Below, one piece after another: positions 39,589 to 40,011 of a stretch of 64,000 bases of DNA. Numbering within the stretch: position 1 is the stretch's first letter; the number at the start of each line of letters is the position of its first letter. Below the pieces are notes generated by a model. That model did not search any database. It was not told the DNA's origin and saw only the letters and a list, made by a program, of their open reading frames with translations. The translations under genes and the position numbers were made by a program. The DNA is from Escherichia coli (GTDB lineage Bacteria > Pseudomonadota > Gammaproteobacteria > Enterobacterales > Enterobacteriaceae), in the NCBI RefSeq assembly GCF_030384885.1, contig NZ_CP128613.1, one strand, 5' to 3'.

Positions 39589-39810
39589 TTACCACCTCGT
39601 ATTTAACAACCGGAGCATTGCTTTTTCCTGGGGAGACAGATCATCTTTAATACCCTTACGATAAATAAGCAGTAATCTGATCTCATAATGTTTAACCTGA
39701 TGAAAGTAAATAACCCTGACACCAGCACGTTTCCCCTTTTCTCCTGAGACCCATCGAACCTTTCTTAACCCACCAGTTTCAGGTATTACCTCACCGTAGT
39801 CAGGATTCAA
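39589..39810 (-). CDS. HigB-2/RelE-family toxin-like ORF; conserved N-terminal region continues upstream to about 39900 with no canonical start
   Basis: TTG-initiated ORF (..GGLRKVRWVSGEKGKRAGVRVIYF..); the same frame upstream encodes ILFIETEIFPEDVQKLLNDDEFSRFQFFLAL before reaching a stop, with no ATG/GTG/TTG. Confidence 0.6.
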   Translation of the reverse strand: MNPDYGEVIPETGGLRKVRWVSGEKGKRAGVRVIYFHQVKHYEIRLLLIYRKGIKDDLSPQEKAMLRLLNTRW

Positions 39811-40011
39811 GGCCAGGAAAAACTGAAAACGACTGAATTCATCGTCATTCAGCAGTTTTTGAACATCTTCTGGGAAAATTTCCGTTTCGATGAAGAGTAT
39901 AACTGTACGCCATTGGCTTAGAGTAACAATCCTTTTTGTACGTCATTGACGTACCCCTGAAACCACTAGCTTACTGATAGTGCTACAGCAAAACCACGTC
40001 TCTGCCGAGTT

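Follow-up and report, generated by a model that had tools for sequence, protein, structure and literature searches.

Organization of the locus

The window (the whole 64,000-nucleotide stretch of Escherichia coli DNA analysed here) carries a two-gene locus on the minus strand, in which the toxin gene comes first and its TAA stop codon (39591-39589) abuts the ATG of the antitoxin gene (39588-39586). The toxin gene is a frame of 103 codons plus TAA (39589..39900, minus strand) for a HigB2-like protein of the RelE superfamily. It opens with ATA (39898..39900, minus strand) at the position assigned to the ancestral ATG, the derived G>A change being located at window base 39898. The antitoxin gene (39298..39588, minus strand) is intact, starts with ATG and encodes a 96-amino-acid HigA2-like protein of the NadS family, an HTH antitoxin and putative autorepressor. 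The locus belongs to an island between yiiE and fabY, with an alpha/beta hydrolase gene and a transposase gene as neighbours; in the genome of strain 2013C-4282, a transposase gene and a truncated gene are found between the hydrolase gene and fabY.

Downstream of the antitoxin gene, three small ORFs, all annotated as "hypothetical" in RefSeq, occupy window positions 38054-39213. They are predicted to encode a 70-amino-acid Arg- and Cys-rich protein (39001-39213, minus strand), a 92-amino-acid protein (38661-38939, minus strand) and a 179-amino-acid membrane-like protein (38054-38593, plus strand). The genes for the 70- and 179-amino-acid proteins are annotated in the clade I strain and absent from the annotation of several E. 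coli sensu stricto loci.

The reading frame of the toxin

On the minus strand, the toxin frame extends from an in-frame TGA (39945-39943), its upstream boundary, located inside the operator-like palindrome O1 described below, to the TAA at 39591-39589, and the translation of 39589-39945 reads RTKRIVTLSQWRTVILFIETEIFPEDVQKLLNDDEFSRFQFFLALNPDYGE...TRW between these two stops. The initial annotation had stated that this frame contains no ATG, GTG or TTG back to the in-frame stop, ahead of a TTG-initiated ORF, and translation confirmed it: the earliest canonical start is the TTG at 39810 (39808..39810, minus strand), codon 31 of the frame, which opens an ORF of 73 amino acids (39589..39810) in the program-made ORF list and whose use is unlikely. 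The chance of 44 codons from TGA to TTG without a canonical start is (61/64)^44, about 0.12, which is not unusual alone. The missing start is nevertheless meaningful, because the N-terminal part that is conserved in the family is encoded by the 30 codons preceding the TTG. As initially proposed, this region lies in frame, and it can be aligned to V. cholerae HigB-2 (residues 4-33) with no gap. Family members had also been expected to begin a few residues before the ETEIF segment; the orthologous proteins start with MLFIETEIF, exactly at the window ATA codon (39900-39898), and V. cholerae HigB-2 starts two residues earlier than this ATA/ATG position. Among the rare codons put forward as possible starts (ATA, ATT or ATC between 39890 and 39900), the ATA at 39900 is thus the one at the orthologous start position. 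Start codon loss is present in the window allele, with no stop and no frameshift in the toxin frame, and the 103-codon frame is still open in all ATA alleles examined.

Identity of the toxin

Comparison of the toxin with V. cholerae HigB-2 using phmmer gave a gapless match over residues 2-99 (E 1e-17 to 2e-18), with 35-40% sequence identity (40% in the orthologue alignment). None of the NCBIfam models match the toxin, and the Pfam model PF06296 ("PF_RelE"), for the ribosome-dependent mRNase toxins that include HigB-2, gave a weak and partial match on residues 43-101 (E 0.022, 15.4 bits); the homology call therefore rests on the direct comparison with HigB-2 and not on family models. The toxin was modeled with AF2 from a small orthologue alignment (pLDDT 84.7). 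The model has the topology b1(2-5)-a1(8-16)-a2(19-31)-b2(46-51)-b3(60-68)-b4(73-81)-a3(90-102) and displays the features of the RelE-type fold described for HigB2 (PMC5416850), in which a sheet of four strands is combined with two helices at the N-terminus and one at the C-terminus. A Foldseek search of the PDB with this model returned HigB2 chains as all of its 11 best matches (TM 0.74-0.87). Replacement of Arg51, Arg64, Tyr82 or Lys84 by Ala in V. cholerae HigB2 lowers activity by orders of magnitude (PMC5416850). These four catalytic residues correspond to R49, R62, Y80 and K82 in the window toxin, where all four are kept, as they are in all ATA alleles. The initial label of "HigB-2-like" was thus right by both sequence and fold, with PF06296 matching weakly.

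The antitoxin and its putative operators

The HTH domain of V. cholerae HigA-2 matches residues 31-89 of the antitoxin (E 2e-8 to 2e-7), and Pfam HTH_3 and HTH_31 are recorded for a protein identical to it. Its score against the NCBIfam model NF041265 NadS is borderline, with 60.7 bits for a cut-off of 60; a search of the literature on "NadS" retrieved only a different paralogue of K-12. The antitoxin had been described as intact, and it is indeed a complete 96-amino-acid ORF, free of non-synonymous differences from other alleles.

Upstream of the toxin frame, a repeat search identified an operator-like palindrome, O1 (39937..39954, no strand assigned), which is a perfect 8-1-8 inverted repeat, GTACGTCA-A-TGACGTAC. 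A second and degenerate operator-like sequence, O2 (39904..39920, likewise without assigned strand), reads TAAGCCAATGGCGTACA on the minus strand; it is a direct repeat, 82% identical to O1, placed 33 bp from it and ending 4 nt before the ATA. Both O1 and O2 are conserved at orthologous loci of other genera, and the motif CCAATGGCGTA, just upstream of the start, is conserved in all orthologues. The layout of these putative operators, GTACG-N7-CGTAC, matches in half-sites and spacing the footprinted operator of V. cholerae HigA2, TGTACGC-N5-GCGTACA (PMC11006873). Sequence, predicted fold, active site, gene order and candidate operator together identify the locus as an operon of the higB2/higA2 type.

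The locus compares closely with V. cholerae higBA2, encoding HigB-2/HigA-2 (PDB 5JA8, 5JAA, 8A0X). In both, the toxin gene comes first, the antitoxin has an XRE-type HTH domain preceded by an N-terminal tail, and the operators share the same half-sites and spacing; the b1-a1-a2-b2-b3-b4-a3 fold, predicted for the Escherichia protein, and the four catalytic residues are also common to the two toxins. Unlike higBA2, the window toxin starts with ATA instead of ATG, two operator-like sites 33 bp apart are present where a single site is reported for V. cholerae, and the locus is part of the chromosomal yiiE-fabY island and not of a superintegron.

ATG as the ancestral start codon

The locus is carried by about 2,635 of the 5,426 complete E. 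coli genomes. An exact 61-mer with ATG at the start position was found in 2,398 complete E. coli genomes, so that at least 2,398 of the approximately 2,635 carriers have the ATG. In the alignment of loci, L001, L002 and L004 have ATG, L003 has ATA like the window, and the window differs from the ATG alleles around the start by substitution, with no indel. ATG is also found in the orthologues of three Citrobacter species, an Enterobacter, Erwinia typographi and Klebsiella spallanzanii (at least five loci in four genera). Since both the majority E. coli allele and the orthologues in four other genera have ATG, we consider ATG to be ancestral and ATA derived, which answers the question initially raised about the ATA codon. 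The alignments thus indicate that the ancestral ATG start was lost in the window by a G>A change at the third base of the start codon. The proposal of a start lost beside a complete HTH antitoxin is supported in both of its parts, ATG being present in orthologues and the antitoxin being identical to WP_000356397.1 of ATG-bearing strains.

The majority E. coli allele (WP_000897302.1 and WP_000356397.1; Nissle 1917, ATCC 25922, NU14) shares with the window the locus, its context and the antitoxin, and the toxins are 98% identical. It differs by its ATG start, by Thr10 and Gly54 in the toxin and by a promoter-like site, TTGTTA-16-TATAAT.

Lineage and frequency of the window allele

Over 431 nt, the window is identical to 2013C-4282, and all other complete genomes are at most 97.2% identical. 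Over 20 kb (30000-50000), it shares 99.7% identity with 2013C-4282 and about 96.2% with other E. coli. Strain 2013C-4282 belongs to Escherichia cryptic clade I, for which 465 strains have been defined (PMC10100065), and the window is of the same lineage as this strain. ATA was found in all four examined carriers of the window haplotype, namely the window, 2013C-4282 and the draft assemblies L005 and L006. The protein of the window allele is recorded on about 400 contigs, of which two, both from draft NCBI assemblies, were read and have ATA, the codon of this haplotype being checked in four sequences overall. The clade I haplotype, whether with ATA or with ATG, gave no match in a metagenome scan. 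From the sequences read, the ATA allele seems to be widespread in clade I, or fixed there.

The window allele is already in RefSeq: the CDS of 2013C-4282 is annotated from the ATA as WP_032269392.1, a "hypothetical protein". A literature search by protein accession retrieved one paper using WP_032269392.1, published in 2025, in which its structure is superposed as "HigB2 from E. coli APEC179" and the start codon is neither mentioned nor commented on (PMC11980606).

Recurrence of ATA and other lesions of the toxin gene

ATG has changed to ATA on three haplotype backgrounds. In addition to the window haplotype, ATA is found on the majority haplotype in eight complete genomes (S51, SCU-316, LH50-c, O78 strain 3, GPEC1446, NCTC10444, NCTC9112 and KV7). 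The members that were read, S51, NCTC10444 and a draft assembly, are mutually identical and all have an additional N18T; because these three are identical, ATA on the majority background probably reflects one lineage. ATA is also present in L018, from an unclassified Escherichia, whose nearest haplotype, L017 (99.1% identity), has ATG and codes for the same protein. A survey of start variants on the majority background, confined to the other two transitions, GTG and ACG, found 0 genomes with either of them.

The toxin gene also carries other lesions. A +G frameshift in the G-run near codon 56 of the toxin is found in 132 complete genomes, and 2 genomes have a +T frameshift at codon 88, the gene being labelled as "frameshifted" by PGAP; a stop at Q26 and one truncation by rearrangement occur in other Escherichia alleles. 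The loci with toxin lesions are L001, L019, L021, L013 and L015. In-frame stops are present in the toxin orthologues of Citrobacter werkmanii and Klebsiella spallanzanii, two loci in which the antitoxin was seen only as a start after the toxin stop. No change in the antitoxin protein was seen in any Escherichia locus translated. We consider it likely, as part of the explanation proposed below, that the toxin of this locus has been disabled several times independently and in different ways across Escherichia, the start-codon change being one of these ways.

Compared with the majority allele, the window has four non-synonymous and three synonymous changes in the toxin gene and zero and two, respectively, in the antitoxin gene, counts too small for a constraint test. 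Among the toxin changes, T10P affects a Thr that is invariant in close orthologues, and G54E introduces an acidic residue in the Lys-rich, basic b2-b3 loop. Replacement of this loop by three alanines in V. cholerae HigB2 impairs activity, and a contact with 16S rRNA was proposed by the authors (PMC5416850). T10P and G54E fit relaxed constraint on the toxin, being too few to prove it.

Two of the ATA backgrounds present further sequence changes around the start. In the S51 lineage (L007/L008/L020), the G>A turns TATAATTATG into TATAATTATA, a perfect 10-bp palindrome at the start codon. Templated quasi-palindrome correction could favour G>A on the majority background, a mechanism inapplicable to the window haplotype, TACAGTTATA. 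In L018 (positions 506-600), operator O1 is also altered, GACGTAC having become GACGTGC, as is the -35-like hexamer, with TTATTA in place of TTGTTA. Of the 13 differences between L018 and its sister haplotype, 4, start codon included, lie no further than about 45 bp from the start. In L018, the toxin and its regulatory region may be decaying together.

Translation and transcription signals

The Shine-Dalgarno sequence of the antitoxin, GAGGTGG (39592..39598, minus strand), lies within the 3' end of the toxin frame, and its predicted anti-SD duplex has a free energy of -8.7 kcal/mol, against a background mean of -2.4. No Shine-Dalgarno sequence was found in the 20 nt upstream of the toxin ATA, where the anti-SD value is -1.5 kcal/mol against the same background mean of -2.4. 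In E. coli reporters, initiation at AUA reaches about 1-2%, or 0.1-3%, of that at AUG (10.1101/063800). Because AUA is a near-cognate start and no Shine-Dalgarno sequence accompanies it, translation of the toxin in clade I is most likely reduced to about 1% of the level of the ATG allele or less. We infer from this reasoning both the size of the translation loss and its physiological consequence.

Scanning the window for promoters retrieved none. In the majority allele, the same scan detected a sigma-70-like site, TTGTTA-16-TATAAT, at L004 1672-1699, corresponding to window 39902-39929 (minus strand), and the window has TACAGT where the majority allele has TATAAT. In this promoter-like site of the majority allele, O2 occupies the spacer and the -10 region, a layout resembling that of V. 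cholerae higBA2. Since the -10 ends 1 nt before the majority toxin ATG, a transcript from TTGTTA-16-TATAAT would begin after the toxin start codon. 

An ATG within CCAATGGCGTA (39911-39913, minus strand) opens a short out-of-frame ORF, whose length varies from 2 to 22 codons across genera. This ORF probably just results from the operator sequence, rather than being a conserved minigene.

Discussion

The explanation that we favour is that, in a chromosomal higB2/higA2-type operon of a cryptic clade I genome, the ancestral toxin ATG has mutated to ATA. Synthesis of the toxin would then drop, AUA being only a near-cognate start with no Shine-Dalgarno sequence, and the antitoxin would still be made from its own strong Shine-Dalgarno sequence and would still bind the two upstream putative operators of the GTACG-N7-CGTAC type. 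The net outcome would be a silenced or strongly attenuated toxin beside a functional, largely stand-alone antitoxin and repressor. We regard silencing or strong attenuation of the toxin by the ATA start, next to a functional antitoxin and repressor, as the probable state of this locus.

The evidence bears differently on the other ways of reading the ATA. The toxin frame and its catalytic residues are intact in all ATA alleles, leaving room for a low level of active toxin, and initiation at AUA is measurable in E. coli. In addition, the recurrence of G>A on three haplotype backgrounds, with neither GTG nor ACG found on the majority one, could hint at selection for attenuation and not at random decay, and PGAP calls the ATA as a start. 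The intact frame and active site, together with the recurrence of the same change, would allow for a genuine and deliberately weak start, the locus then being a working TA pair with a tuned-down dose of toxin. We nevertheless find this unlikely: the near-cognate ATA has no support from a Shine-Dalgarno sequence, the ATA lineages have additional non-synonymous changes at conserved or functional positions of the toxin (T10P and G54E; N18T) and none in the antitoxin, and the call made by PGAP is an annotation choice and not evidence of translation. Moreover, frameshift and nonsense alleles are common elsewhere, and since these are outright losses of the toxin, such loss is tolerated.

The two remaining readings place the start elsewhere or dismiss its loss, and both are extremely improbable. 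The TTG at 39810 is the first canonical start of the frame and some annotations of related alleles use the 73-amino-acid ORF (P0003), which would be an N-terminally truncated protein; however, the 73-amino-acid annotations examined belong to alleles that have ATA, are interrupted by a nonsense codon or are truncated. No anti-SD pairing was found upstream of this TTG (-1.5 kcal/mol), and the 30 codons that precede it are conserved as coding sequence across genera. Its product is also implausible as a toxin, because b1, a1 and a2, which pack on the sheet, would be missing. We thus rejected the TTG as a functional start. As for a sequencing or assembly error, or a true start at the out-of-frame ATG (39913-39911), 13 nt upstream, combined with a 1-nt indel, the presence of an ATG in another frame is what speaks for the latter. 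However, the same ATA sequence is found in at least four independent assemblies of the window haplotype and in other lineages, the alignment to the ATG alleles reveals a substitution and no indel, and the upstream ATG belongs to the conserved operator motif CCAATGGCGTA, with a short ORF differing in length between genera. No conserved signal for the +1 shift needed to pass from this ATG into the toxin frame is present. An upstream start at 39913 with an indel or a programmed frameshift was rejected on these grounds, only substitutions being observed and the ATG being part of the operator motif.

Returning to a silenced or strongly attenuated toxin, the recurrence of ATG>ATA might mean that a "clean" switch was selected and that the decay is not random, a reading to which we give only a slim chance. 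If true, the change of start would do away with the toxin or minimise it while avoiding both polar effects and toxic fragments, and the locus would be left as a NadS/HigA2 regulator acting on its own or as a gene for immunity to HigB2-type modules that come in. In another version of this reading, the toxin would be made only under relaxed start-codon fidelity, for example at low IF3. Under the same reading, partial domestication of this sort may already apply to the majority E. coli allele, whose best promoter-like site would start transcription just after the toxin ATG.

Two known situations resemble this locus. As Mine et al. reportedly described in Genetics in 2009, ccdO157 in E. coli is a case of chromosomal toxin decay with retention of the antitoxin. 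Independent toxin-inactivating mutations across strains of one species, with an intact antitoxin, are common to ccdO157 and the locus studied here; the differences are that ccdO157 belongs to another toxin family and that the window allele keeps its whole frame open, its lesion being a changed start codon. Near-cognate starts also serve for tuning in E. coli, the AUU of infC being a natural example. An AUN start cuts translation by about two orders of magnitude (10.1101/063800), a trait that the window would share with such tuning starts, from which it differs in that its ATA is derived and has no Shine-Dalgarno sequence. A broad literature search on toxin decay and start codons returned nothing specific.

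Taken together, the start loss conforms to what is known of chromosomal toxins that decay while their antitoxins are retained; it is real but ordinary, and does not define a new kind of system. It matters for annotation and for the census of TA systems, as RefSeq lists the ATA CDS as an ordinary protein that, in this lineage, is probably not made in meaningful amounts. The locus also provides a natural series for the loss of a toxin with its antitoxin and repressor kept, comprising ATG, ATA on three backgrounds, two frameshifts, a nonsense codon and a truncation.
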